The notes beneath the pieces are model-generated. The model was given only the letters and a program-made list of their open reading frames with translations. It made no database searches and had not been told where the DNA came from. From Escherichia coli (lineage in GTDB: Bacteria > Pseudomonadota > Gammaproteobacteria > Enterobacterales > Enterobacteriaceae), in assembly GCA_902500125.1 (NCBI GenBank), contig GCA_902500125.1_4132.1: 64,000 nucleotides of DNA. The stretch is one strand, 5' to 3'. A program made the translations under genes and the position numbers. Positions 630 through 17,423 of the stretch are shown here, one piece after another. The first letter of the stretch is position 1; the number at the start of each line of letters is the position of its first letter.

Positions 630-1292
630 ATGTTAGTTAATCTTAATTTCATCACTTCTCCTGATTGGGCATTGCGTGGTGTTTCTTTGAACTTTAAAGA
701 AACTAATTTCGACTACATTGGTGATTGTACTTTAGTTAATGCTACATTTGATCCTCATCATCCTTTTTGGGCTGAAATTCATGATCCTAATGTAAACAAT
801 AGTACATCTGTTATGACTATTGTACAGACGAAACATACAGGTATCCTCGCAGGTTACAGACCAGGACATGCGATTGAACACTTCACTGATTATGATGTAG
901 TAGATGAGTATCCAATGATCCATGAAGATGGAAGTTTATACACGTCAGAAGACTTCCGTGCTATCTTTAATAGTACTGATGACATTCTACCAAGTGGTCG
1001 TCCACGCCCTGAGTCTTATCTTATGCACTCGTCTTATGGTGTAGCAGATACGCTTGAACAGATTTTGACGAAGTACAAGAACCTTATTGAAGGTCCTGAA
1101 GAAATTGTCATGTGCTATCATCCAGTACTGAAGTCTGACCAACCAGAGAGTGGTGGGTGGCGTTGGCATAAGAATGGTGAGTACATCGGTACTAAGCGTA
1201 GTAAAGAACGCTTTGAGTACTTGTATGATGAGCCAGATGTTGAGGTTGTTTTATGTTATAATTTTCTTAAGGTGAAAAAGAAATGTATCTAG
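630..1292 (+). CDS. hypothetical protein (220 aa)
   Basis: ORF track; GAGGA 621-625 before ATG. Confidence 0.7.
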   Translation: MLVNLNFITSPDWALRGVSLNFKETNFDYIGDCTLVNATFDPHHPFWAEIHDPNVNNSTSVMTIVQTKHTGILAGYRPGHAIEHFTDYDVVDEYPMIHEDGSLYTSEDFRAIFNSTDDILPSGRPRPESYLMHSSYGVADTLEQILTKYKNLIEGPEEIVMCYHPVLKSDQPESGGWRWHKNGEYIGTKRSKERFEYLYDEPDVEVVLCYNFLKVKKKCI

Positions 1293-1525
1293 TATTGAGT
1301 TTTGTAGTTGCATTATTGTTTATGTTCTACCCTACACTAGTAGCAGTAGCCACTAAACGAAAGCTGGTGGATATCACTACTGTATTCTTGCTAAACGTGG
1401 CACTCGTTCTAGTGTCTATTATCATTCCCGTGAGCTTTACGGTTATTGATATTATTTCGGTATTACTCTTCGTGTTAAGTTATCTTATGCTTATTGAAGA
1501 AACAAATGTTGACAAACGTTCGTAG
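1283..1525 (+). CDS. small membrane protein (80 aa)
   Basis: ORF track; almost entirely hydrophobic (2-3 TM); AAGGTG upstream. Confidence 0.6.
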   Translation: MYLVLSFVVALLFMFYPTLVAVATKRKLVDITTVFLLNVALVLVSIIIPVSFTVIDIISVLLFVLSYLMLIEETNVDKRS

Positions 1526-6703: not shown

Positions 6704-6967
6704 ATGGCTGAAACATTATCACTATATGCGTTAGTACTGTTATTTGTCGGATTTCTTCCCGCACTCATTACAGCCATTCGTGTTGTTAAACATGAAGCTG
6801 CATTGATTGTATGTAGTATTGGGTCGAACATTCTATTGTATTTCTTTTTGACAAATACTATTGTACTGTTTGCTTTCTTTATCATGATTCTGTGGGTACT
6901 TGTAATTCTCGGATTCTTCATTTGGTCATTGGTTGATCCTAAGAAAAAATCAGGAGAAGTGAAATGA
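6704..6967 (+). CDS. membrane protein (87 aa)
   Basis: ORF track; 2-3 TM segments. Confidence 0.6.
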   Translation: MAETLSLYALVLLFVGFLPALITAIRVVKHEAALIVCSIGSNILLYFFLTNTIVLFAFFIMILWVLVILGFFIWSLVDPKKKSGEVK

Positions 6968-7883: not shown

Positions 7884-9118
7884 AACATCGTAATGGTGGA
7901 CTAGTACAACACTCGGATAAATGGGCCGACCGAAATCGTCGCAAAAATAGTTATCAAGCAGGACAAGGTTCACGTGGTTCCAGAAACCAAGGAACGGGAC
8001 TTGCTGGTAAGGCAAACGCAGAAGCAGGTGAAGTTAAGAGTACTGAGAACATGACTGAGCTAGAAAAGCTACGTTATGTTAATTCATTGGGACTTCTTAA
8101 TGCTACACAAAAACAACGTCTAGCTGATATGGAACGTGAAGAAAAAGAAAAGTCTGCTCCTGCGAAAGAAGAACCAAAACAAGAAGCACCAAAGGCGGTT
8201 AACCCTGTCAAAGAACTGTCTGATAAGTTAGGTAAGATTTTTGCTAATAAACCACAACTTATCCAAGGTATTGTGAAAGAATTGCAATCTGTACCTAAAG
8301 AAGAATTAAAAGTCAAAGCACAAGCTGTACTTGATGCAATGAGTGGAAATACCAGTACTGAACCAACTGAAGTATTCAGTACTATAATGCGTGCACTTGA
8401 AGGTACGCAACAAGGTGATGTGCCTGCACAAGAGGAAGTAAGTCTTGAAAGCGTACTTAAAACATTTGATAGTATTGGTAAAGAAGACCGTGCTAATGCT
8501 CAACAAGTTAAGAATGTACTAGCTAAGTTAGAAAACCGTCTGGAAGGTAAAGACGATAAGATTAAATTAGTATCTGATGCAGTTAACGATGCACTTAAAT
8601 CTTATGTACAAGGTGAAAAGAGTCGTTTTGTAACTGCAATGGATGCTGCATTCAATACTATGAAAAAGTATGAAGCTGATCATGGTGAGAAGGTTACACG
8701 AGATGGTTATCTGATGCGTGATGATGAAGAAGGTGCAGTAGAACAGAATGATGTTCATTCAGACGAAGAAATTGATGACATGGAAGCTGAACTGTCACAA
8801 GACCGCCAAATGACTGAAAAATCCCATAACGAACTACAGAAATTAATGCAATGGGTTGCAGATGTTGGTGAAAAAGCTGGTGCTGATAAGAAGAGTATAA
8901 ACCGAAATCTTAGTTGGATTAAAGATAAAGTTGGTAACAACGCTCGTAAACTACAAAAAGCGTGGACTGATGTAGTGAATGGTGCTGTTGACATTGATGT
9001 TGAATCCGGTGAGGCATATGATTATGCATTGACTACACTTGATGACTCTTTCCGTGATTACGAAAATGGAAATGTAACTCCTTGGGAAAAGGATATCATG
9101 AGCAAATACGGTAAATGA
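7859..9118 (+). CDS. hypothetical protein (419 aa), basic Gly-rich N-terminus and acidic helical body
   Basis: ORF track; AGAGGA 8 nt upstream; overlaps end of HNH gene by 25 nt (alternative ATG 7880). Confidence 0.7.
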   Translation: MPQDNGDMKHRNGGLVQHSDKWADRNRRKNSYQAGQGSRGSRNQGTGLAGKANAEAGEVKSTENMTELEKLRYVNSLGLLNATQKQRLADMEREEKEKSAPAKEEPKQEAPKAVNPVKELSDKLGKIFANKPQLIQGIVKELQSVPKEELKVKAQAVLDAMSGNTSTEPTEVFSTIMRALEGTQQGDVPAQEEVSLESVLKTFDSIGKEDRANAQQVKNVLAKLENRLEGKDDKIKLVSDAVNDALKSYVQGEKSRFVTAMDAAFNTMKKYEADHGEKVTRDGYLMRDDEEGAVEQNDVHSDEEIDDMEAELSQDRQMTEKSHNELQKLMQWVADVGEKAGADKKSINRNLSWIKDKVGNNARKLQKAWTDVVNGAVDIDVESGEAYDYALTTLDDSFRDYENGNVTPWEKDIMSKYGK

Positions 9119-9128
9119 TAAAACAAAA

Positions 9129-9160
9129 GGTTGACTTCGGTCAGCCTTTTTTGTTATGAT
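9129..9160 (+). terminator. terminator/promoter cassette
   Basis: GGTTGAC-ttcg-GTCAGCC + T6; TTGACT 9131-9136, TATGAT 9155-9160. Confidence 0.6.
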
Positions 9161-9188
9161 GTTGGTATTAACTACAGAGGATAAAGTA

Positions 9189-9830
9189 ATGACTAAGCAA
9201 GACATATTCAAAACTTTAATTGACATTTTGCGTCCATCAAAAACTCGTTGTGCGATGGAGTTTGATATTCCTTATGCTGAACGCGTAATCTTTCCACAAG
9301 TTAAAGCTGCTGGACTTACTTTGCTTGGAATGGGGATGTACTCTGTAGTAGTTGAACATAAAAACTATCCTGGACGTGCATTTAAAGTAACCACTTCACG
9401 CTGGGATGGTTTTCGTGCTTATGCAAAGTACTGCATTGAAAACGCAGGAACCAAGTTTCTTCCAGTGATCTACAGTGCCAACGAACAAGGAAACTTTGGA
9501 TGGTATGAGATGGACAAGTACTATCCTATAATTAAACAAAAAAATAATTATGATGACTTTGTTAGTACTAAAATTGGAGATTTATATTCTTATGCACATG
9601 CTGGTCAGTACGCTACTTCAGTGAATGATATGCGTGGAAATTCTGAAGAGATTGCTATTGCAACGGTCGCTGCTAACATCATGAAAGAGTTTCACGGGCG
9701 TTTTGTACCAGACATTCATTCAAGTAATGTGATGATGGATAAAGATGGCAATGTATTCATTACTGATCCTCTTTCGTGTGATGTACGTAGAGAAATACCA
9801 GTTACTGAAGAAGATCCAGTTTTTTATTGA
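9189..9830 (+). CDS. protein kinase-like fold protein (213 aa)
   Basis: ORF 9156 trimmed to ATG 9189 (GAGGA); G-loop-like LLGMGMYSVV, RAFKV lysine, catalytic-loop-like DIHSSNVMM, then ITDP. Confidence 0.55.
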   Translation: MTKQDIFKTLIDILRPSKTRCAMEFDIPYAERVIFPQVKAAGLTLLGMGMYSVVVEHKNYPGRAFKVTTSRWDGFRAYAKYCIENAGTKFLPVIYSANEQGNFGWYEMDKYYPIIKQKNNYDDFVSTKIGDLYSYAHAGQYATSVNDMRGNSEEIAIATVAANIMKEFHGRFVPDIHSSNVMMDKDGNVFITDPLSCDVRREIPVTEEDPVFY

Positions 9831-9891
9831 CAGAACTGATGTTCTGGTGTATTCTTAATAAACCATAAAAATTGCGGTAAAGGATAAAATC

Positions 9892-10173
9892 ATGCGTTCA
9901 TTTGAAAACTTAATAGGTAAGCATCTTTTATCTGAAATTGATGCAGACGTTAAAGAATTATCCAAATCAAAAAGTTACATTCATTTGGATGAACTGTTTA
10001 TTAAGTACGGTGAGATTGGTTTTAAGTCATTATTTGTTTTTACTATGAAAGTACATAGTTTAAAGTACTTCGATTTGAGTTCTAAAGATGGTGAACCGAA
10101 TCTATATTACATGTATTACCTTAAGAACAAAGATGAAGCTAATACATTACTCTCTGAATATATATTGGGGTAA
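9892..10173 (+). CDS. hypothetical protein (93 aa)
   Basis: ORF track; AAGGA upstream. Confidence 0.6.
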   Translation: MRSFENLIGKHLLSEIDADVKELSKSKSYIHLDELFIKYGEIGFKSLFVFTMKVHSLKYFDLSSKDGEPNLYYMYYLKNKDEANTLLSEYILG

Positions 10174-10175
10174 AA

Positions 10176-10514
10176 ATGGAACAATATTTTGAATTAATAA
10201 ACAAAGTATCATTTTATGTAGTATCTTTGGTTTGGGTGTATTATATGTTTTGCTATATTATTGCATTCTTCCGATATACTACTTTATATGAACGTATCTA
10301 CTATGATGCCCCAATTTCATTCTTGATGTTTTGTGCATGTACGTGGGGAATATTAGAAGTACTGATATGTGGGTATAGTACTGATGAATTAAATCTGGTA
10401 TCGGTGTTGACTGGGTTTTCATTTGTTGTTATGATAGCTGCCGTTCCAGTATGGTTGTTCTTTGGACTAGTTCATCGCATTGATATATGGCGTTCTAATA
10501 TCCCTGAAAAGTAA
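10176..10514 (+). CDS. multi-TM family protein (112 aa)
   Basis: 3-4 hydrophobic segments; C-terminal tail RSNIPEK shared by the family. Confidence 0.65.
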   Translation: MEQYFELINKVSFYVVSLVWVYYMFCYIIAFFRYTTLYERIYYDAPISFLMFCACTWGILEVLICGYSTDELNLVSVLTGFSFVVMIAAVPVWLFFGLVHRIDIWRSNIPEK

Positions 10515-10523
10515 GGATTGGAA

Positions 10524-10865
10524 ATGATTTATTACACTAACATGTTTGCCTATGCTGTTGCTTGCATTTACATTGTTTACTTCTTATTCGGTGGAGTACT
10601 GTGCTTCTTTAAGTACAAAACGTTGTTCAACCGAATGTACCCAAATCATCCAATTGTAGTTGTACTTTTGATTCTTTCAGTTTCTCAAATAATCGTTGAA
10701 ACTACAATGGGTATCAGTAGTGTACATTATAGTTTTGGCACTATAGTAATTATTACTATGCTTATTGCATACATTTTAGTACTTGGATATGGTATCTTTG
10801 GTAATATTGGTATGAAAATGTATCATCGAATTAAAACATTACGTGATAATCTACCGGAGCGTTGA
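10524..10865 (+). CDS. multi-TM family protein (113 aa)
   Basis: ORF-track TTG 10518 trimmed to ATG 10524 (AAGGA 6 nt upstream); tail RDNLPER. Confidence 0.65.
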   Translation: MIYYTNMFAYAVACIYIVYFLFGGVLCFFKYKTLFNRMYPNHPIVVVLLILSVSQIIVETTMGISSVHYSFGTIVIITMLIAYILVLGYGIFGNIGMKMYHRIKTLRDNLPER

Positions 10866-10866
10866 T

Positions 10867-11211
10867 ATGTATAATTTGAACCTAATCTCATATATTATAA
10901 CAACACTGTTTACATTCTATGCCTTTGTTGGTATAATCCTACTGTACTTTAAATTTTATAAAGTGTTTAACCGTTTCTATCCTTCAATGGAGAATGAGTT
11001 TTTCTTTGTGTTGTACGTAGGTTACACATTAATGGCTACATGTTTCACTGTAGCCGATGGTGTCATCGGCATTAAAACTGATTCCCCAAATGGTAGTACG
11101 CTGGTTGCATTTATTCTTACTGGATTCCTTGCAACTTATATTGCCTTCATTACAACATGGTCAGTGGTTGAATTTCTCTTGCGACTACGAAAGAATATGC
11201 CGAATCGATAG
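10867..11211 (+). CDS. multi-TM family protein (114 aa)
   Basis: ORF 10843 trimmed to ATG 10867 right after previous stop; tail RKNMPNR. Confidence 0.65.
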   Translation: MYNLNLISYIITTLFTFYAFVGIILLYFKFYKVFNRFYPSMENEFFFVLYVGYTLMATCFTVADGVIGIKTDSPNGSTLVAFILTGFLATYIAFITTWSVVEFLLRLRKNMPNR

Positions 11212-11220
11212 GAGACATAT

Positions 11221-11475
11221 ATGTTTGCGTTGCGTAATAAAAACACTAAAGAATTATTATGTATTGATACCGTATGGGATTGTGCGGGATCAACTACAGT
11301 TCTTGAAGAAGGAACTGGATATTGCGTGTTTGTTGTTCATGATAGGAATGAACTCGAATTATTACTTGCTGAGTTCAATGCTGGTGGTAATCCTAACAGT
11401 ACTGAATACCCTGAGATTATCAATCCAGCACCACCAGGCTCTTATGAAATTCTACAACTGTGGGAGTTGAAGTAA
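11221..11475 (+). CDS. hypothetical protein (84 aa)
   Basis: ORF track; AGGAG upstream. Confidence 0.6.
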   Translation: MFALRNKNTKELLCIDTVWDCAGSTTVLEEGTGYCVFVVHDRNELELLLAEFNAGGNPNSTEYPEIINPAPPGSYEILQLWELK

Positions 11476-11855
11476 TGCGTCAAATGCACAAAGTAACCGA
11501 GCTAAACAAGCGTCTGGTTAAACAATCAATGTTCGAGGATAAAGAGTCTTATTATAACTTTAAACGTGCTGTAGAGGCTGCTATCCACATTCAGAAGCTT
11601 AAAGAACGTGGTTGTATTATTCTGGAAAATGGGTCGGAAGTTGTAACGGATGACTTTAGTGTAGCGTTTGATGTTTCACCTGACGGGACGCTATCAATGC
11701 CCCGCTTAGGAACTGGAAACATGACTGTTTGGGTTGGCTTCACTATGGGGAATGTACCTGGTACTGTGTACGTAGATGATGCGGAATTGAAAGACAGTTT
11801 CAAAAACTTATCTTATCTTGAACCACAATACGCACATGAAATGAATTTATTTTGA
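11475..11855 (+). CDS. hypothetical protein (126 aa)
   Basis: ORF 11460 trimmed to ATG 11475 (TAATG overlap with previous stop). Confidence 0.6.
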   Translation: MRQMHKVTELNKRLVKQSMFEDKESYYNFKRAVEAAIHIQKLKERGCIILENGSEVVTDDFSVAFDVSPDGTLSMPRLGTGNMTVWVGFTMGNVPGTVYVDDAELKDSFKNLSYLEPQYAHEMNLF

Positions 11856-11856
11856 G

Positions 11857-11913
11857 TTGACAAACACATTCAGTACTGTATAATGCTTATCAAGGGGATG
11901 AACTTCTCATCCC
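11857..11913 (+). promoter_or_regulatory. promoter + 5' stem-loop cassette (PeSL-like)
   Basis: TTGACA 11857, TATAAT 11879, hairpin GGGATGA-acttc-TCATCCC 11895-11913, SD GAGGA, ATG 11932. Confidence 0.6.
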
Positions 11914-11931
11914 TACAATCGAGGAACTACC

Positions 11932-12486
11932 ATGATTACTTTTAAGAAAACTGCTAACCACATCCATGAAATCTACATTAACGGTCACAAAGCTGGCCTT
12001 CTTCGTTTACTCGCCCATCATCCTGATGTTACCGTATCTGATAATGAACCTAAAGATTGGCGTGTATTTTTCTTTGGAAAGTACAGTGATTTTCAAGTAT
12101 CAAACCTGAAGAACATTCGTTCAGTATGCACGTTAACTGAAATTAAAGAAAAGTTAGAAAAAGCATTGAAAACTAATCCAGATGGTGTTCTTCCACCTGA
12201 TAACTTTGTAGAGAAAGGTTATGCATTAGCTCATTTCAAAGATGGTACTATTCAATCTATCAGTACTGAATATGAATATCAATGGACTGAGTACTTCACT
12301 TATGGATCGCGTAATACATTGATGGCTTCACGTAGTAAATTGGAAGAAGTACTGACTCGTATGAATGAACGCGAACGTCAATTTTATGACAAACCAGAAA
12401 TGTGGAGTTCAACTTACATTGACCGTATTGACTATGTTATTATGACTCCAATCTTTGACACTGCTTACTATGATTCTTTGAAATAA
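11932..12486 (+). CDS. hypothetical protein (184 aa)
   Basis: ORF track; own promoter/hairpin/SD. Confidence 0.7.
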   Translation: MITFKKTANHIHEIYINGHKAGLLRLLAHHPDVTVSDNEPKDWRVFFFGKYSDFQVSNLKNIRSVCTLTEIKEKLEKALKTNPDGVLPPDNFVEKGYALAHFKDGTIQSISTEYEYQWTEYFTYGSRNTLMASRSKLEEVLTRMNERERQFYDKPEMWSSTYIDRIDYVIMTPIFDTAYYDSLK

Positions 12487-12497
12487 GGATAACTTAT

Positions 12498-12674
12498 ATG
12501 AAACTACGTACTCGTAATCGACTGATGGATGCACTGTACCATGAACAGCTTTCACTGAATGAAGTGAAGCGACAGTTAATGTACACATATCTGTTACCCG
12601 ATCGCATTGCAAAACAACGTGCTAAAGAATTGCTGAAAGAAGCAATCGAGTACTGGGAATCTGATTCGTACTAA
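12498..12674 (+). CDS. hypothetical protein (58 aa)
   Basis: Not in ORF track; ATG 12498 after AAGGA; MKLRTRNRLMDALYHEQ...; fills gap. Confidence 0.45.
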   Translation: MKLRTRNRLMDALYHEQLSLNEVKRQLMYTYLLPDRIAKQRAKELLKEAIEYWESDSY

Positions 12675-12702
12675 TTGTCACGTTAATTAAGTGAGGCGAT
12701 AA

Positions 12703-12954
12703 ATGAAAATTTTATTAGTTCTAATACTACTAATTGTTTTACCATTTACGTTAGTATCCCCTGAACTTGCATGGAATGTGTTTGTGTACTTAGTATGTAC
12801 TATTGTAGTAAATGGTATCTTGTTCTTAGTTCTATTCATAAATGGAATAGGACACGGTGGAGGATGGACCAGTACTGCTGATATTGTACATAAAACCACT
12901 ATGTCTTTATTTGTAATGTGGAATTTATTCTGGACTTGGTTTGTGTTCTTCTAA
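12703..12954 (+). CDS. membrane protein (83 aa)
   Basis: ORF track; GAGG upstream; hydrophobic. Confidence 0.6.
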   Translation: MKILLVLILLIVLPFTLVSPELAWNVFVYLVCTIVVNGILFLVLFINGIGHGGGWTSTADIVHKTTMSLFVMWNLFWTWFVFF

Positions 12955-12962
12955 TTAAAAAT

Positions 12963-13334
12963 ATGAATATAGATTTGAAAGGTGCAACCCGAACTGTCAT
13001 ACTCATTGGGGAATATGCTATCAAGATTCCAACCTTTAAAAGTTGGAAGCTATTCTTAACAGGGATGATAGCTAACCTCAATGAACGTTCGTGGATGCAG
13101 TACTCCAATCGTAGTGATAGTAGTATCTGTCCTACGTTGTGGTCATCATGTACTGGACTAGTAACTGTACAGAAACGTTGTAAGCCAGTGCAACATAGGG
13201 GTTTATTTTGGGTGGAGTTGTGTGCTTTAGCATTGAATTCAGAGTTAAGTACTGACTTCTTCTATTCAGATGCGAAGCCAGAAAACTTTGGGTATCTGTG
13301 TGGTAAGTTGGTTAAACTTGATTATGGAGATTAA
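12963..13334 (+). CDS. minimal protein kinase-like protein (123 aa)
   Basis: ORF 12918 trimmed to ATG 12963; GEYAIKIP (VAIK-like), DAKPENF (DxKPxN catalytic loop), KLDYGD (DFG-like); very short for a kinase. Confidence 0.5.
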   Translation: MNIDLKGATRTVILIGEYAIKIPTFKSWKLFLTGMIANLNERSWMQYSNRSDSSICPTLWSSCTGLVTVQKRCKPVQHRGLFWVELCALALNSELSTDFFYSDAKPENFGYLCGKLVKLDYGD

Positions 13335-13335
13335 T

Positions 13336-13605
13336 ATGTACGCATTGTATAATAAAGAAAAGAAACGATTTGCTAAGGTTGAAATTTCGATTGATACATT
13401 TGACATGTTGGAGTACTGTATTGTAACGGACTTATATGCTAACTTGTATTACGTTCTTGATGACGTATCAGTACTGCAACGATTGCTTGAGAATTCCAAA
13501 AGTCAATGCCAGGACATCCATGATGGTTCATCTTATGAAACACCTGAGTGTCCCCACGGGCAACTCGATGGGTATGAGATTGTTAAGTTGGGAATTGTTG
13601 AGTAA
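13336..13605 (+). CDS. hypothetical protein (89 aa)
   Basis: ORF 13270 trimmed to ATG 13336 (GGAG upstream), 1 nt after previous stop. Confidence 0.55.
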   Translation: MYALYNKEKKRFAKVEISIDTFDMLEYCIVTDLYANLYYVLDDVSVLQRLLENSKSQCQDIHDGSSYETPECPHGQLDGYEIVKLGIVE

Positions 13606-13611
13606 AAGGTA

Positions 13612-13640
13612 TTGACACCGTACTCATTTAACTGTATTAT
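13612..13640 (+). promoter_or_regulatory. sigma70-like promoter
   Basis: TTGACA 13612-13617, 17-nt spacer, TATTAT 13635-13640. Confidence 0.55.
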
Positions 13641-13670
13641 GTATGTACACCAACTAATGAGGAATCGGAA

Positions 13671-14030
13671 ATGGCATCTTTATCTGAAATCACTGAACTG
13701 AATCCACTGGTAATTAGTACTGTTCAACGCACCAAGACGTTTTACTTCCGTCCTGCTGATGGATGGAAACGTGGAATGAATGGTGACTATCGAGTACTGG
13801 AAGATTCGCTCATCGAGCGTATCAACTCTGAACTACAGAAGTATGAAGGTGTTAAAGTTGTCCGTTCAACTTCTCGTTATTTTGAGTACTACATTGAGTC
13901 TTCAACTGTAAATGAAAACTCATCATTCTCGGTGGATAACACTGATATTCTTCGCAATGCAGTTGGTTTGCTATGCAACATTGCAGAAGAAATGGGATTA
14001 ACTATCACCACAATGAGTGAGTTAGAATAG
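13671..14030 (+). CDS. hypothetical protein (119 aa)
   Basis: ORF track; GAGGA upstream. Confidence 0.65.
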   Translation: MASLSEITELNPLVISTVQRTKTFYFRPADGWKRGMNGDYRVLEDSLIERINSELQKYEGVKVVRSTSRYFEYYIESSTVNENSSFSVDNTDILRNAVGLLCNIAEEMGLTITTMSELE

Positions 14031-14040
14031 AATAAAAAAA

Positions 14041-14072
14041 GGGTTGACTTAGGTCGGCCCTTTTGCTATTAT
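14041..14072 (+). terminator. terminator/promoter cassette
   Basis: GGGTTGAC-ttag-GTCGGCCC + TTTT; TTGACT 14044-14049, 17 nt, TATTAT 14067-14072. Confidence 0.6.
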
Positions 14073-14100
14073 ATCTATATCGAAACGAAGGAGACAAACC

Positions 14101-14874
14101 ATGACCCGTCAAGAGAAAGCAATCCAAATCGAAAAAAACTTCAATAGCATGATGGCTGCACTGGAATGCCTTCTTGATACACAAGCTAACTCTATCAACT
14201 CTCTGATCGTATCAGGTAAAGGTGGTGTTGGTAAAACTTATAACGTTGACCAACGGTTGCAGAAAGCTGATGATAACTTTGAAATCGACTACAAGAAAAT
14301 CAGTGGTAAAGTAACTACTTTGGGTCTGTACGAAGCACTGTATCGTTCACGTCATGCCGCATCAGTACTGTTACTTGATGACGTTGATATCTTCTCTGAC
14401 GAGACTAATATTGATTTGCTTAAAGCTGTGTTGGATACGTCAGAGAAGCGTGTAGTTTCTTACGCGACTTCTGCTAAGTACCTGGAACAGCAGGGTATCC
14501 CTAAGCAGTTTGAATTCCGTGGTAAAGTAATCTTTCTGACTAACAAAAACCTGTCACAGATTGCTAAAGGTAAAAGCAGCTTAGCACCACACATCGATGC
14601 ACTGATCACTCGTAGTATCTTTGTTGACCTGCAACTGTTCACCAACGAAGAAGTGATGATTCACATTGAGAACATCATGAACAAAACTAACATCCTTGAA
14701 AACAATGGTGTTAACAAAAATGGTTGTAAAGCAATCCTGAATTGGATGCTGAACAACGAAGAACGTTTGCGTAGTCCATCACTGCGTATGCCAGTACTGA
14801 TCGCTGGTTTGTATAATAAATTCCCATACGATTGGGAATCAATGGCAGAGAATATGTTCCTTGAGAAAATTTAA
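14101..14874 (+). CDS. P-loop NTPase, AAA-type ATPase (257 aa)
   Basis: Walker A SGKGGVGKT; Walker B VLLLDDVD; AGGAG upstream. Confidence 0.8.
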   Translation: MTRQEKAIQIEKNFNSMMAALECLLDTQANSINSLIVSGKGGVGKTYNVDQRLQKADDNFEIDYKKISGKVTTLGLYEALYRSRHAASVLLLDDVDIFSDETNIDLLKAVLDTSEKRVVSYATSAKYLEQQGIPKQFEFRGKVIFLTNKNLSQIAKGKSSLAPHIDALITRSIFVDLQLFTNEEVMIHIENIMNKTNILENNGVNKNGCKAILNWMLNNEERLRSPSLRMPVLIAGLYNKFPYDWESMAENMFLEKI

Positions 14875-14882
14875 TTACATGT

Positions 14883-14911
14883 ATTGACAGTACTACACTA
14901 TGGTAGTACTA
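14883..14911 (+). promoter_or_regulatory. sigma70-like promoter
   Basis: TTGACA 14883-14888, 17 nt, TACTAT 14906-14911. Confidence 0.5.
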
Positions 14912-14941
14912 TAACTTAATATTCACCACCGGAGATACGAT

Positions 14942-15280
14942 ATGCTTGAGTTTTTTAATTCAGATACAATGATTAGTATTACTTTGATTTATCTGTTTGG
15001 TTTTTTCTTTTATCATGCACTGGTTGTAGTACTGTGGTATTTTAAAAAGAAAATTGTTTTTAAACTGTATCCAGTAAGGAATTCATCACTAGTTCTTTAC
15101 ACACTAGTTCAAGGTTTGTTTGCAATTGTTGGTCTTATGGCACACTTAATTTATTGTGCCAATCCTCACTTGAACTCAATCTCACAATATATTGTATTCT
15201 TTGGGTTGTTCATTTGGTTAGTTGTATACTTAATCCATCTCATTATTCATGGTAGAGATAAAATTCGCGGAGACTTCTAA
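14942..15280 (+). CDS. multi-TM family protein (112 aa)
   Basis: Hydrophobic segments; tail RDKIRGDF; first of 7 tandem coupled paralogs. Confidence 0.65.
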   Translation: MLEFFNSDTMISITLIYLFGFFFYHALVVVLWYFKKKIVFKLYPVRNSSLVLYTLVQGLFAIVGLMAHLIYCANPHLNSISQYIVFFGLFIWLVVYLIHLIIHGRDKIRGDF

Positions 15281-15627
15281 TGTTTGAAGCTTATCTTGAG
15301 TTTTTAAGGAGTAGTTCAGTTGCACATTCACTTGCAGGGATTATTCTAACAACTTATGTATCATTTTGGGTAGTTATGTTTCTAGGATGGTATTTTAAAC
15401 GACAATTCTATAAACGTAATGGTGAAGATTTTATGAATTCTGCCATTAATCAATCGTTGTTTGCATCAACATTGATTGCATGTATTGTAGCAACACTCAC
15501 AGGAAAGGTACTACCAGCTTTTTCCGCAGTTTACGGCACACTTGGGATGATATGTTTAACTTTTATATTGACCATTAAAATTTGTTGTGTTATGATTGAA
15601 CTTCGAAATAAGATACCGGAGGAATGA
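15280..15627 (+). CDS. multi-TM family protein (115 aa)
   Basis: TAATG overlap; tail RNKIPEE. Confidence 0.65.
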   Translation: MFEAYLEFLRSSSVAHSLAGIILTTYVSFWVVMFLGWYFKRQFYKRNGEDFMNSAINQSLFASTLIACIVATLTGKVLPAFSAVYGTLGMICLTFILTIKICCVMIELRNKIPEE

Positions 15628-15962
15628 TGGAGTACTTTATTGATTTACTGCCGTGGTATATGAAAGTTAGTACCATGTACTATATTATTAGTGCTGGATT
15701 CTACTTTCTGATGTGGTTCTTTAAACGACCAATTTCAGTATTCATCGCTGATAACATGCTGCAATTAAAATTACACGCATGGTTTGGTATGGCGATGATT
15801 ATGCCTATTATTCACTACTCAATGATTAGTAGAGGTTTCCGTTCTAATGGTGAACCAATTGTATTAGTATTCTATTGGGGTTCAACTATTGCATATGTAA
15901 GTTTGTTGTTGTTCCCAGTCGTTCATAAGTTACGTGCTAAAGTTCCTGATGCGAGGTACTAA
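15624..15962 (+). CDS. multi-TM family protein (112 aa)
   Basis: ATGA overlap; tail RAKVPDARY. Confidence 0.65.
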   Translation: MMEYFIDLLPWYMKVSTMYYIISAGFYFLMWFFKRPISVFIADNMLQLKLHAWFGMAMIMPIIHYSMISRGFRSNGEPIVLVFYWGSTIAYVSLLLFPVVHKLRAKVPDARY

Positions 15963-16276
15963 TGGATATAGTAACATTGATTTACACGTTGTATTCATTC
16001 TATTTCATTATGTGTTGGGTTGGATTTTTATTTGTACTCAAGATGTTTGATTATGTTGAAAAACAGATAAAAGAATTTTGTATTCCTTTTATCGGTTCAA
16101 CCATTATTAGTGTTTCTTGTGTGTATTTTTTGGTTTTTGATCCACCAGATAACACTGCAATGATTGACTTGATGTTACTACCAACAACTGTTACTTTTTT
16201 ATGTAGTCTGATGCCGCCGATTAGCCGTGGACTAACAGAATTTAGACGCAATCAAAAGCGTAAACGAGGGATGTAA
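15962..16276 (+). CDS. multi-TM family protein (104 aa)
   Basis: TAATG overlap; basic tail RRNQKRKRGM. Confidence 0.65.
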   Translation: MDIVTLIYTLYSFYFIMCWVGFLFVLKMFDYVEKQIKEFCIPFIGSTIISVSCVYFLVFDPPDNTAMIDLMLLPTTVTFLCSLMPPISRGLTEFRRNQKRKRGM

Positions 16277-16644
16277 TGGAAATTGCTCTTATTATCTTAA
16301 CTGCTATGCTGTTTATTAGTACTGTGGTTATAATTGGTAAATTCTTTTGTGTATCATTTTTAGAAACGGTATACGATGAAATTGCTGATGATTATGAATT
16401 ACAAGCCGGATTTTTCATTACGTATTGGCTTAGTTTATTTTGTCTAGTCATTGCTTGGATTTTACATATCTTTAAATGGGGTATGGTAGACGGTGATCCT
16501 ATTATGGCAATTATTGTTCTAGTGTTTGGTATCCTTGGTGGTGCAGTGCATAATCTAATGGTTATCTGGCAAACTGTTCAATATGTTTTGGTTCCCTATT
16601 TCGAAAAGATGCACAGTACAATTAAAAAACGTAAACGAGGTTAG
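16276..16644 (+). CDS. multi-TM family protein (122 aa)
   Basis: TAATG overlap; basic tail IKKRKRG. Confidence 0.65.
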   Translation: MEIALIILTAMLFISTVVIIGKFFCVSFLETVYDEIADDYELQAGFFITYWLSLFCLVIAWILHIFKWGMVDGDPIMAIIVLVFGILGGAVHNLMVIWQTVQYVLVPYFEKMHSTIKKRKRG

Positions 16645-16645
16645 T

Positions 16646-17008
16646 ATGAACGGGATAGAATTATCTTTCGTTGGTCAATTACTAGTAATGGCGTATACAT
16701 TTATCTTCTCACTGAATGCATTCGTGTGCATTGGGAAGTACTTCCATAAGCGACCATTATCAAATATATATGATGTAATCCAAAAGAGATATAGTCCAGC
16801 ATATACTGTGTTGGGTACAGTATTCAATTTTGGTTTTATTGTATTAATAATTGGACTGTTCACATCCTCTTTGAATACAATAACCTTCGGTCTTATGATA
16901 TGTTCATTGGTATTAGCCGTAATTATATGTTGTTTAGTACTGCACCTTGTGGTACTATTGTATATAAAGATCTCTGAAATCCACCAACGTTTGGGTATGA
17001 GGAAATAA
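16646..17008 (+). CDS. multi-TM family protein (120 aa)
   Basis: ORF 16583 trimmed to ATG 16646, 1 nt after previous stop; tail HQRLGMRK. Confidence 0.65.
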   Translation: MNGIELSFVGQLLVMAYTFIFSLNAFVCIGKYFHKRPLSNIYDVIQKRYSPAYTVLGTVFNFGFIVLIIGLFTSSLNTITFGLMICSLVLAVIICCLVLHLVVLLYIKISEIHQRLGMRK

Positions 17009-17009
17009 T

Positions 17010-17381
17010 ATGAGTTACCGTGAGATATTTTCCATTATTTCAATTATTATGTTCAGTACTGGAACACTGGTATGGTTATTATACTTCTTCTGTATTAATC
17101 CAGTGTATAATATGTTATGTAATATTAAATCAAGTGCCGGATATATCACTTTTATGGTCTTTATGGGATATTATTGTCTAAGCATTTTAGGTGTTGTTTT
17201 GGTTGTTATATTTGATGTGGGACCAAATAGTGATGGTATGGAAATACATGAATTAATAACCATGTTTGGATGTATGATACCAACAGCACTACTGTTTGTA
17301 GCTACTGGTAGTGGATTGATAAAATTATATAATTATTTAAAATCCATTCATAATTCCATTCATAATAAGCGTATGTCATAA
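17010..17381 (+). CDS. multi-TM family protein (123 aa)
   Basis: 1 nt after previous stop; tail HNSIHNKRMS. Confidence 0.65.
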   Translation: MSYREIFSIISIIMFSTGTLVWLLYFFCINPVYNMLCNIKSSAGYITFMVFMGYYCLSILGVVLVVIFDVGPNSDGMEIHELITMFGCMIPTALLFVATGSGLIKLYNYLKSIHNSIHNKRMS

Positions 17382-17388
17382 TAAAAAA

Positions 17389-17410
17389 TCCAGTACTATT
17401 AAGTACTGGA
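17389..17410 (+). terminator. hairpin built from AGTACT half-sites (weak terminator)
   Basis: TCCAGTACT-atta-AGTACTGGA; A-run before, no T-run after. Confidence 0.35.
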
Positions 17411-17423
17411 TGTATAAGGAGTT

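Follow-up and report, generated by a model that had tools for sequence, protein, structure and literature searches.

Two gene clusters of an Asteriusvirus-like phage and a superfamily of small, putatively three-helix membrane proteins

Ten small genes, arranged in two tandem clusters on a 64-kb stretch of DNA (contig GCA_902500125.1_4132.1, referred to here as the window), were compared with each other, with their neighbours and with their counterparts in related phages. The comparisons indicate that the ten genes are homologous and make up a real family of predicted three-transmembrane (TM) proteins, which, as far as can be judged from sequence data, is confined to Asteriusvirus-like phages. 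As to function, we tentatively regard the paralogues as a battery of early accessory inner-membrane proteins that arose by tandem duplication in Asteriusvirus-like phages only, a reading which is possible but, in our judgement, not yet probable. A 7.5-kb region of the window was 96-98% identical to the genomes of the Asteriusvirus members CRJP21, phAPEC6, 121Q and PBECO4 (E. coli jumbo phages of about 350 kb), and the window derives from a phage of this 121Q/PBECO4-like type.

Homology of the ten genes

The initial annotation had listed a group of three genes (10176-11211, here cluster 1, m1-m3) and a group of seven genes (14942-17381, cluster 2, m4-m10). By ORF listing and translation of the window all ten open reading frames (ORFs) were found on the + strand, with lengths of 104-123 amino acids (aa), and a six-frame scan with a hidden Markov model (HMM) of the family picked exactly these ten (E <= 1e-17), the next best match having E = 0.078. 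The scan covered the 64-kb window only. The ten window genes belonged to the training set of the HMM; independent support comes from the arrays of other lineages and from the motif controls described below.

When the ten proteins were compared pairwise by BLASTP or phmmer, clear links were found only among m1, m2 and m3, and many scores between subgroups were insignificant. PHROGs distributes the ten proteins over seven families (phrog_19285, 19454, 19046, 27396, 33258, 26405 and 27618), which were matched over the full length with E values of about 1e-51 to 1e-70, the exceptions being m3 (3e-4) and m9 (marginal). The insignificant scores and the split into seven families would fit the alternative that the ten are unrelated small hydrophobic ORFs resembling each other only in composition, or that some of them are not genes. 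The same can be said of m7, for which no hhalign link exceeded 2% and which was borderline in iterative HMM searches, and of a reversed decoy which went down to E = 0.003 in one iteration.

Other results were at variance with this alternative. Profiles built from the orthologues of each member were compared with hhalign. Probabilities were 91-98% among m1-m3 (95-98% for m1 to m2 or m3, 91-95% for m3 to m1 or m2), 63-68% across the full length among m8-m10 (63% for m10 to m8) and 33% between m1 and m10, while the m5-m6 (62%) and m1-m5 links involved the tail only. With five control small TM proteins of the same window the hhalign probability to the family was approximately 0. Iterative HMM searches from several seeds pulled in nearly all members and linked the subgroups; reversed decoys (the best at the E value given above) and the control TM proteins never reached the inclusion threshold. 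When 1.84 billion representative proteins were searched with a profile made from 33 sequences, just 33 matches were obtained at E <= 1e-3, all of them 89-127 aa long and aligned end-to-end. Since a compositional TM profile should match pieces of larger membrane proteins, these same-length, full-length matches argue that the similarity is not compositional.

Two motifs were recognized in the conservation statistics, for which 73 representatives at <=60% identity were used. A Phe residue was invariant (72/72) within the motif [IV][LG][WK][FY]F[KCH] at the cytoplasmic end of TM1, and the C-terminal tail contained the motif L..L[RH].[KN][IL][P/R/K].[RK], whose column 110 was occupied only by Arg (39) or His (27) in 66 sequences. 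Regular expressions for the TM1 and tail motifs matched 63% and 75% of the members, respectively, and both were present in 52%; the corresponding values in the controls (1,460 shuffles, reversed sequences and 120 non-member ORFs) were 0-1%, 4-7% and 0%. Two types could be distinguished: type A (m1-m6) with LW[FY]FK ... LR.K[IL]P and type B (m8-m10) with GK[FY]F[CH] ... H..I..K/R. Among the distant representatives, intermediates such as WFFC...YHKRL bridge the two types.

In view of the profile links and of the two motifs, which were lacking in reversed, shuffled and non-member controls, the possibility raised in the initial annotation that the similarity is only compositional does not hold. 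The ratio of nonsynonymous to synonymous substitution rates (dN/dS) was below 0.5 in every member, which indicates that they are coding. The reading of the ten as unrelated ORFs thus seems largely refuted, and we assign it next to no probability. The links differ in strength: they are strong for m1-m3, moderate for m8-m10, established through bridging sequences and motifs for m4-m6, and weakest for m7.

In cluster 1, m1 (10176..10514, 112 aa, tail RSNIPEK) is a type A protein orthologous to gp207 of 121Q (phrog_19285, E = 4e-59), m2 (10524..10865, 113 aa, tail RDNLPER) matched the same family (E = 4.5e-59), and m3 (10867..11211, 114 aa, tail RKNMPNR) is encoded by the final gene. Cluster 2 starts with m4 (14942..15280, 112 aa, WYFKKK, tail GRDKIRGDF, phrog_19454), which was recruited by the m1-m3 profile in the iterative search. 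It is followed by m5 (15280..15627, 115 aa, WYFKRQ, tail LRNKIPEE), which matched phrog_19046 (7e-51) and, with 7e-6, phrog_16874 ('membrane protein'), by m6 (15624..15962, 112 aa or, if ATG 15627 is the start, 111 aa; WFFKRP, tail LRAKVPDARY, phrog_27396) and by the most divergent member, m7 (15962..16276, 104 aa, tail RRNQKRKRGM, phrog_33258). The type B proteins m8 (16276..16644, 122 aa, GKFFC, tail MHSTIKKRKRG, phrog_26405) and m9 (16646..17008, 120 aa, GKYFHKRP, tail IHQRLGMRK) precede the type B-like m10 (17010..17381, 123 aa, YFFC, tail IHNSIHNKRMS, phrog_27618), whose gene is the final one of the array.

Start codons were chosen by Shine-Dalgarno (SD) spacing and by the annotation of related phage records, and three of them were shifted relative to the initial annotation. 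The start of m2 was placed at ATG 10524 and not at TTG 10518 (AAGGA is located 6 nucleotides (nt) upstream and the identical start is annotated in related phages), that of m3 at ATG 10867 and not at GTG 10843 (GGAG within the m2 tail, 8 nt upstream of the ATG), and that of m9 at ATG 16646, 5 nt after GAGG. The counterparts in 121Q (gp207-209 and gp224-232) are, without exception, annotated 'hypothetical protein'. In the CRJP21 record OQ708376.1 m1 carries the erroneous label 'endonuclease V', and the label 'regulator of chromosome condensation' is wrongly given to m4-m6.

Five other small multi-TM ORFs of the window (1283-1525, 1583-1909, 2359-2736, 6704-6967 and 12703-12954) were considered as hidden members, and none was recruited (best E = 0.55-0.7). 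All five are on the + strand; small membrane proteins are in general abundant in the early region. The TM segments of ORF 1583-1909 are spaced much as in the family (1/45/79), but the motifs are missing from it. The T4 genes NrdC.7, NrdC.9, rI and mobD.x were also tried as relatives, and none matched the family.

Predicted topology, C-terminal tails and divergence

A Kyte-Doolittle scan identified three hydrophobic segments in each of the ten proteins, at near-identical positions (around residues 13, 47 and 81); in m6, TM1 and TM2 were weaker than in the other members. Summed over the ten proteins, 71 Lys and Arg residues were located in loop 1 and the C-tail and only 8 in the N-tail and loop 2. 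By the positive-inside rule this distribution predicts an N-out/C-in inner-membrane topology with a periplasmic N-terminus and a cytoplasmic C-terminus. An AlphaFold2 model of m1 had helices at residues 2-41, 47-67 and 74-107 and a mean predicted local distance difference test score (pLDDT) of 70. With this model, which had a low predicted template modelling score (pTM), Foldseek found nothing significant in BFVD (best E = 0.38). Hydropathy and charge bias, and for m1 the model, agree with the initial assignment of all ten as membrane proteins; of the '3-4 TM' given there, three predicted helices were found in every member and a fourth in none.

Class I holins, such as lambda S, have three TM helices, an N-out/C-in orientation and a charged cytoplasmic C-tail, and are encoded by one gene with dual starts. 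The array members resemble lambda S105 and P22 gp13 in size (approximately 105-120 aa), in the number of TM segments and, by prediction, in orientation and basic C-tail. Their topology, tails and lengths of 104-123 aa would therefore be compatible with a holin- or antiholin-like role in permeabilising the membrane and timing lysis. They differ from class I holins by the lack of a sequence match, by early-type promoters, by their distance from the endolysin gene and by the occurrence as 7-12 tandem paralogues, a copy number which would be unprecedented for holins. No holin family was found with 33 members in Pfam/NCBIfam (E <= 1), nor was any holin-annotated family found in PHROGs. Holin genes are expressed late and lie in or beside a lysis cassette (endolysin, spanin). 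Here the σ70-like promoters, the short early-type ORFs and the gp0.7-like kinase gene, which with the AAA+ ATPase gene is a neighbour of the array (see below), would point to early expression, and the endolysin of 121Q is gp532 (PMC5259590), far from gp207-209 and gp224-232. A role in lysis is, in our estimate, hardly probable.

The five C-terminal tails quoted in the initial annotation (RSNIPEK, RDNLPER, RKNMPNR, RNKIPEE and RAKVPDARY) are present as described there, and so are the basic tails of the remaining five proteins. The latter were called divergent; they are indeed basic but not unrelated, as they contain the same motif with His replacing Arg at column 110. The motif tails are conserved as protein, the same residues being encoded, for example, by CCT GAA in m1 and CCG GAG in m2. 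In every gene directly preceding another (m2, m4-m9) the last 3-4 codons contain the SD sequence of the next gene (e.g. CCG GAG, CGC GGA G, GCG AGG, CGA GGG, CGA GGT, ATG AGG A), about 2-8 nt before its ATG. This arrangement favours terminal Arg, Gly and Glu codons, and part of the character of the tails is thus the translation signal of the next gene; a basic C-tail is in any case expected of a cytoplasmic C-terminus. Most junctions were described earlier as 0-4 nt overlaps, which is nearly right; the actual range is from a 4-nt overlap to a 9-nt gap, several junctions being 1-nt gaps.

Rates of divergence were compared between the array and the ATPase gene located between the two clusters, as noted in the initial annotation (14101..14874, + strand). 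This gene lies directly upstream of cluster 2 and is separated from cluster 1 by about 2.9 kb of unrelated ORFs. Relative to the window, WPEC3 had 98% identity in the ATPase and 62-92% in the array members, A4 had 59% and 24-67%, and in contigs L004 and L014 the ATPase was 87-89% identical and the array members were at most 33% identical, mostly undetectable by BLASTP. Across the compared lineages ATPase identity ranged from 56 to 98%, array member identity from 24 to 92% or below detection. The array members thus diverge far faster than the adjoining ATPase, which was 56-89% identical where the members were <=33% identical.

Gene-wide dN/dS values (Nei-Gojobori, relative to WPEC3 and UE-S1) were 0.03-0.47 for the members, with many synonymous changes, and 0.03-0.06 for the ATPase. 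These values show that the members are functional genes under relaxed purifying selection, without gene-wide positive selection. The word 'diversifying' in the initial annotation cannot be maintained in the sense of positive selection, given these gene-wide values and the one-to-one correspondence, in the same order, of cluster 2 in A4. Variable columns among orthologues were more frequent in TM2 (50%) and TM3 (57%) than in TM1 (25%) and loop 1 (28%). Judged from the alignments, the TM2-loop-TM3 hairpin is the variable part of the protein, and TM1, its cytoplasm-facing end and the juxtamembrane C-tail are conserved.

The array in related phages and its genomic neighbourhood

In tblastn searches with m2 and m5 as queries the family was found only in Asteriusvirus records of Escherichia and Salmonella. 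The contigs carrying distant representatives share one layout, in which an ATPase gene (254-257 aa) is followed by a run of family genes; the gap between ATPase and array is 1-10 nt in L004, L014, L010, L011 and L017. The comparison of copy number across relatives proposed in the initial annotation gave 4 to 12 family genes after the ATPase: seven in the window, WPEC3 and A4, eight in CRJP21 and 121Q (which have an additional m4 paralogue), 9-10 in L004, about nine in L010, 9-11 in L011 and 12 in L014, three of the last being recent near-identical LWFFK(V/I)PY genes. L017 (Salmonella phage 7t3 type) has four three-TM genes, only one of which is a clear family match. The order of types is kept across lineages, type A being followed by a transitional WFFC...H form and then by type B, with varying copies of A or B. 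Cluster 1, a separate operon 3.7 kb from cluster 2, has three genes in the window and one in A4; for cluster 2, A4 has seven one-to-one orthologues in unchanged order.

In 121Q m7 is frameshifted (gp228+229), and Salmonella phage SD-1_S14 lacks the greater part of both m5 and the ATPase gene, with m4, m6-m10 and an ATPase fragment retained. These cases suggest that individual copies may be dispensable.

The constancy of order bears on the main rival explanation, namely that the paralogues are subunits of one early hetero-oligomeric inner-membrane assembly (channel, pore or scaffold), in which TM1 and the cytoplasmic motifs would pack the subunits and translational coupling would set their stoichiometry. 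Such an assembly would account for the overlapping or abutting stop and start codons with the downstream SD inside the upstream tail (m2, m4-m9), for the A-transition-B order in lineages whose ATPases are only 56-89% identical, for the one-to-one orthologues in A4, for TM1 being the most conserved segment, and for purifying selection on all members. It is harder to reconcile with a copy number which varies from 4 to 12 between lineages and has grown by recent local duplications in L014, with the loss or disruption of single members in isolated phages (SD-1_S14, 121Q), and with cluster 1, which belongs to the other operon and is a single gene in A4. Moreover, embedded SD sequences and tight packing are common across phage genomes and are no sign of a complex. 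On balance we consider a common assembly unlikely; still less probable is its more elaborate form, in which the array of 7-12 paralogues would be a single hetero-oligomeric phage machine (channel or scaffold), possibly serviced by the ATPase.

The ATPase is a homologue of T4 NrdC.10 (phrog_1250, E = 2e-100) with the Walker A sequence GKGGVGKT. Its identity to NrdC.10 of T4 and T2 is about 40%, with 96% of its length aligned to the T4 protein, and it has the features of the family: full-length homology, an AAA+ fold, Walker A, Walker B and sensor motifs, and the invariant residues G42, G44, K45, D93, D94, N148 and R171. Unlike the window ATPase, T4 NrdC.10 is a protein of 322 aa that is extended at its N-terminus. 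It is conserved in T4-like and jumbo phages (PMC1524935). NrdC.10 homologues are widely mislabelled 'thioredoxin' in many T4-like genomes. The AlphaFold2 model of the ATPase had a mean pLDDT of 92, and Foldseek matched it to the AAA+ proteins CbbQ, DnaA, RFC, RuvB and BrxL with TM-scores of about 0.5 (E = 2e-5); a PDB sequence search gave weak matches to ORC, Cdc6, TnsC and DnaI. The modelled fold is generic AAA+, closest to DNA-associated clades but belonging to no specific clade, and gives no functional clue.

The ATPase gene directly precedes the array in every array-bearing lineage, with the very short gap mentioned above in five of them, and the conserved motifs of the array proteins would face the cytoplasm. 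One could therefore imagine the array proteins as membrane anchors or substrates of the NrdC.10-like ATPase, which would dock on the tail L..L[RH].K[IL]P.R. The ATPase, however, mostly occurs without the array. Its homologues were found in 1,310 phage records, most of them array-less: T4, T2, Xanthomonas phage XaC1 and the more distant metagenomic homologues all lack an array. In T4 no family member is found beside nrdC.10, the following genes nrdC.9-nrdC.7 not matching the family, and in XaC1 convergent RCC1-like genes come directly after the ATPase.

The ATPase of 121Q, moreover, is 99% identical to that of A4 and 59% to that of the window, while its array is 98-100% identical to the window's; there is no co-variation. 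As ATPase alleles and array types assort independently, a specific partnership between them is unlikely. SD-1_S14 keeps m4 and m6-m10 with a mere fragment of the ATPase gene, and the generic AAA+ fold, nearest to DNA-associated clades, likewise weighs against the idea. The link between ATPase and array implied by the initial annotation is accordingly weak. A functional connection is unlikely on the sequence comparisons, and docking on the tail motif is, to our mind, highly doubtful.

The two ATPase alleles (window, 14101-14874; 121Q, L022, 12787-13557; A4, L002, 16640-17410), which are 59% identical, have been exchanged between otherwise 96-100% identical Asteriusvirus genomes, and the region is strongly mosaic. 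Between the window and A4, two other ORFs (orf11932 and orf12703) share 97-99% identity, against 24-60% for the genes that flank them. These observations suggest that the array has expanded at a site prone to recombination, where an early transcription unit ends and a convergent block of RCC1-like genes follows.

Sites resembling σ70 promoters were located by consensus match. A site at 9827..9855 (+ strand, TTGACA-17-TATTCT, before orf9892) is the predicted promoter of the m1-m3 operon, and another at 14884..14912 (+ strand, TTGACA-17-TACTAT), located in the 68-nt gap before m4 and followed by GGAG and the m4 ATG, is the predicted promoter of the seven-gene operon. Within 9118-14942 all intergenic gaps of >=60 nt hold a strong σ70-like TTGAC(A/T)...TAT..T site (9131, 9827, 11857, 13612, 14044 and 14884), the one at 11857 agreeing with the consensus in 12/12 positions. 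The related phage CBB has a cluster of RpoD-like promoters in a short-ORF region which its authors interpret as early host-takeover genes (PMC5259590). Directly upstream of the operon holding m1-m3 there is a gene for a T7 gp0.7-like protein kinase (9156-9830, probable start 9189; phrog_15752, 2.5e-97, 'inhibitor of host transcription'). The placement of the consensus sites and the kinase neighbour suggest that the array is transcribed early.

Several other features of the neighbourhood were observed. In L010, L013 and L017, homologous Phage_T7_kinase genes precede the ATPase gene at a distance of a few genes. A 138-aa ORF of the window (12918-13334; phrog_4301, unknown function) contains the sequence 'DAKPENFG...KLVKLDYGD', which resembles kinase catalytic-loop and DFG motifs, so that a second kinase-like gene of truncated or atypical form may be present. 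Two near-identical elements (9125-9160 and 14037-14072) with a G+C-rich hairpin and a T-run, resembling terminators, precede the kinase gene and the ATPase gene, respectively. The stems of both carry TTGACT, followed 17-18 nt further on by TATGAT or TATTAT, so that a terminator overlaps with a σ70-like promoter.

Directly after m10 there is a perfect 10-bp hairpin (17388-17411) with a T-run on the minus strand only, which would therefore terminate convergent minus-strand transcripts and not the array operon; beyond it the + strand has AAGGAG and then the ATG of orf17424. Convergent paralogous genes for RCC1 / WD40_RLD beta-propeller proteins (approximately 400 aa) occupy the minus strand right after the array, from 18562 to about 31000, and coincide with a sign change of the GC skew (approximately 18 kb to 32 kb). 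They are probably part of the extensive tandem array described in 121Q (PMC5646251).

Possible function and significance

That the paralogues are early accessory membrane proteins is the reading best supported by these data, our confidence in it being moderate to low; the single complex is its main rival. Immunity, exclusion, channel or decoy roles, as suggested in the initial annotation, are candidate functions. According to the accessory-protein reading, the ordered, translationally coupled array (type A, transitional, type B) would have arisen by tandem duplication. Host RNA polymerase would transcribe it early from σ70-type promoters, near the gene of the T7 gp0.7-like host-takeover kinase, and the proteins would enter the inner membrane of the host shortly after infection, where they would act as non-essential accessory factors. 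Each paralogue might engage a different membrane target, for instance a route by which superinfecting phages enter, or a membrane or defence protein of the host, and the conserved cytoplasmic face might have a role common to all, for example in insertion, in topology or in binding a shared partner. The position of the array beside the NrdC.10-like ATPase gene would then reflect expansion at a site where an early transcription unit ends, and not a functional pairing.

Several points weigh against the accessory-protein reading. Searches of PHROGs, Pfam, NCBIfam and BFVD linked no member to a functionally characterised protein (33 members were searched in Pfam/NCBIfam). The conserved order, the one-to-one orthology with A4 and the translational coupling fit a single complex at least as well. 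The variability of TM2 and TM3 could reflect neutral drift of lipid-facing residues and not changing specificity. Promoter-like sites were not enriched region-wide (57 against a shuffled expectation of 52.5), so that the promoter argument depends on the placement of the sites in gaps, and the sites themselves are consensus matches only. The deletions and the frameshift taken to indicate dispensability could be assembly or sequencing errors, and m7 is but weakly tied to the family.

A comparison can be made with the superinfection-exclusion and immunity membrane proteins of phages. T4 Imm and Sp, P22 SieA and HK97 gp15 are small, early, non-essential inner-membrane proteins which vary between related phages. 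The promoter context of the array, the loss of single copies in isolates and the variability between lineages would be consistent with proteins of this kind, but the topology is different: Imm has two TM segments, Sp and gp15 have one, and the array members have three. No homology to characterised exclusion proteins was found in PHROGs, Pfam, NCBIfam or BFVD, and we know of no exclusion or immunity protein that forms a large paralogous array.

It has been proposed that jumbo-phage genomes can grow by tandem duplication (PMC5646251, PMC7247149). In this respect the array resembles other jumbo-phage arrays, such as the groups of >30 similar genes in 121Q and phage G and the RCC1-like genes, which however encode soluble or virion-associated proteins, whereas the present array encodes predicted small integral membrane proteins. 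Neither a description of the family nor an Asteriusvirus transcriptome was found in the Asteriusvirus and jumbo-phage literature searched. The sequences were already catalogued in PHROGs as separate families of unknown function; what appears to be new is their union, across seven such families, into one superfamily with defined motifs, predicted topology, conserved order and phyletic range. The class is a familiar one, that of lineage-specific accessory small membrane proteins of large phages, in which such arrays are not unusual, and on present evidence this is not a new kind of system.

Most jumbo-phage genes are without an assigned function, and annotation is especially difficult for small membrane proteins. 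With its motifs, predicted topology, gene order and range defined, the superfamily is now a tractable unit for genetics. If the paralogues do form one complex, this would amount to a novel membrane machine of phage origin, of a type not so far described from tailed phages. If, on the other hand, the competitors or host membrane systems that are blocked differ from one paralogue to the next, the array would represent a compact library of membrane-targeting inhibitors.

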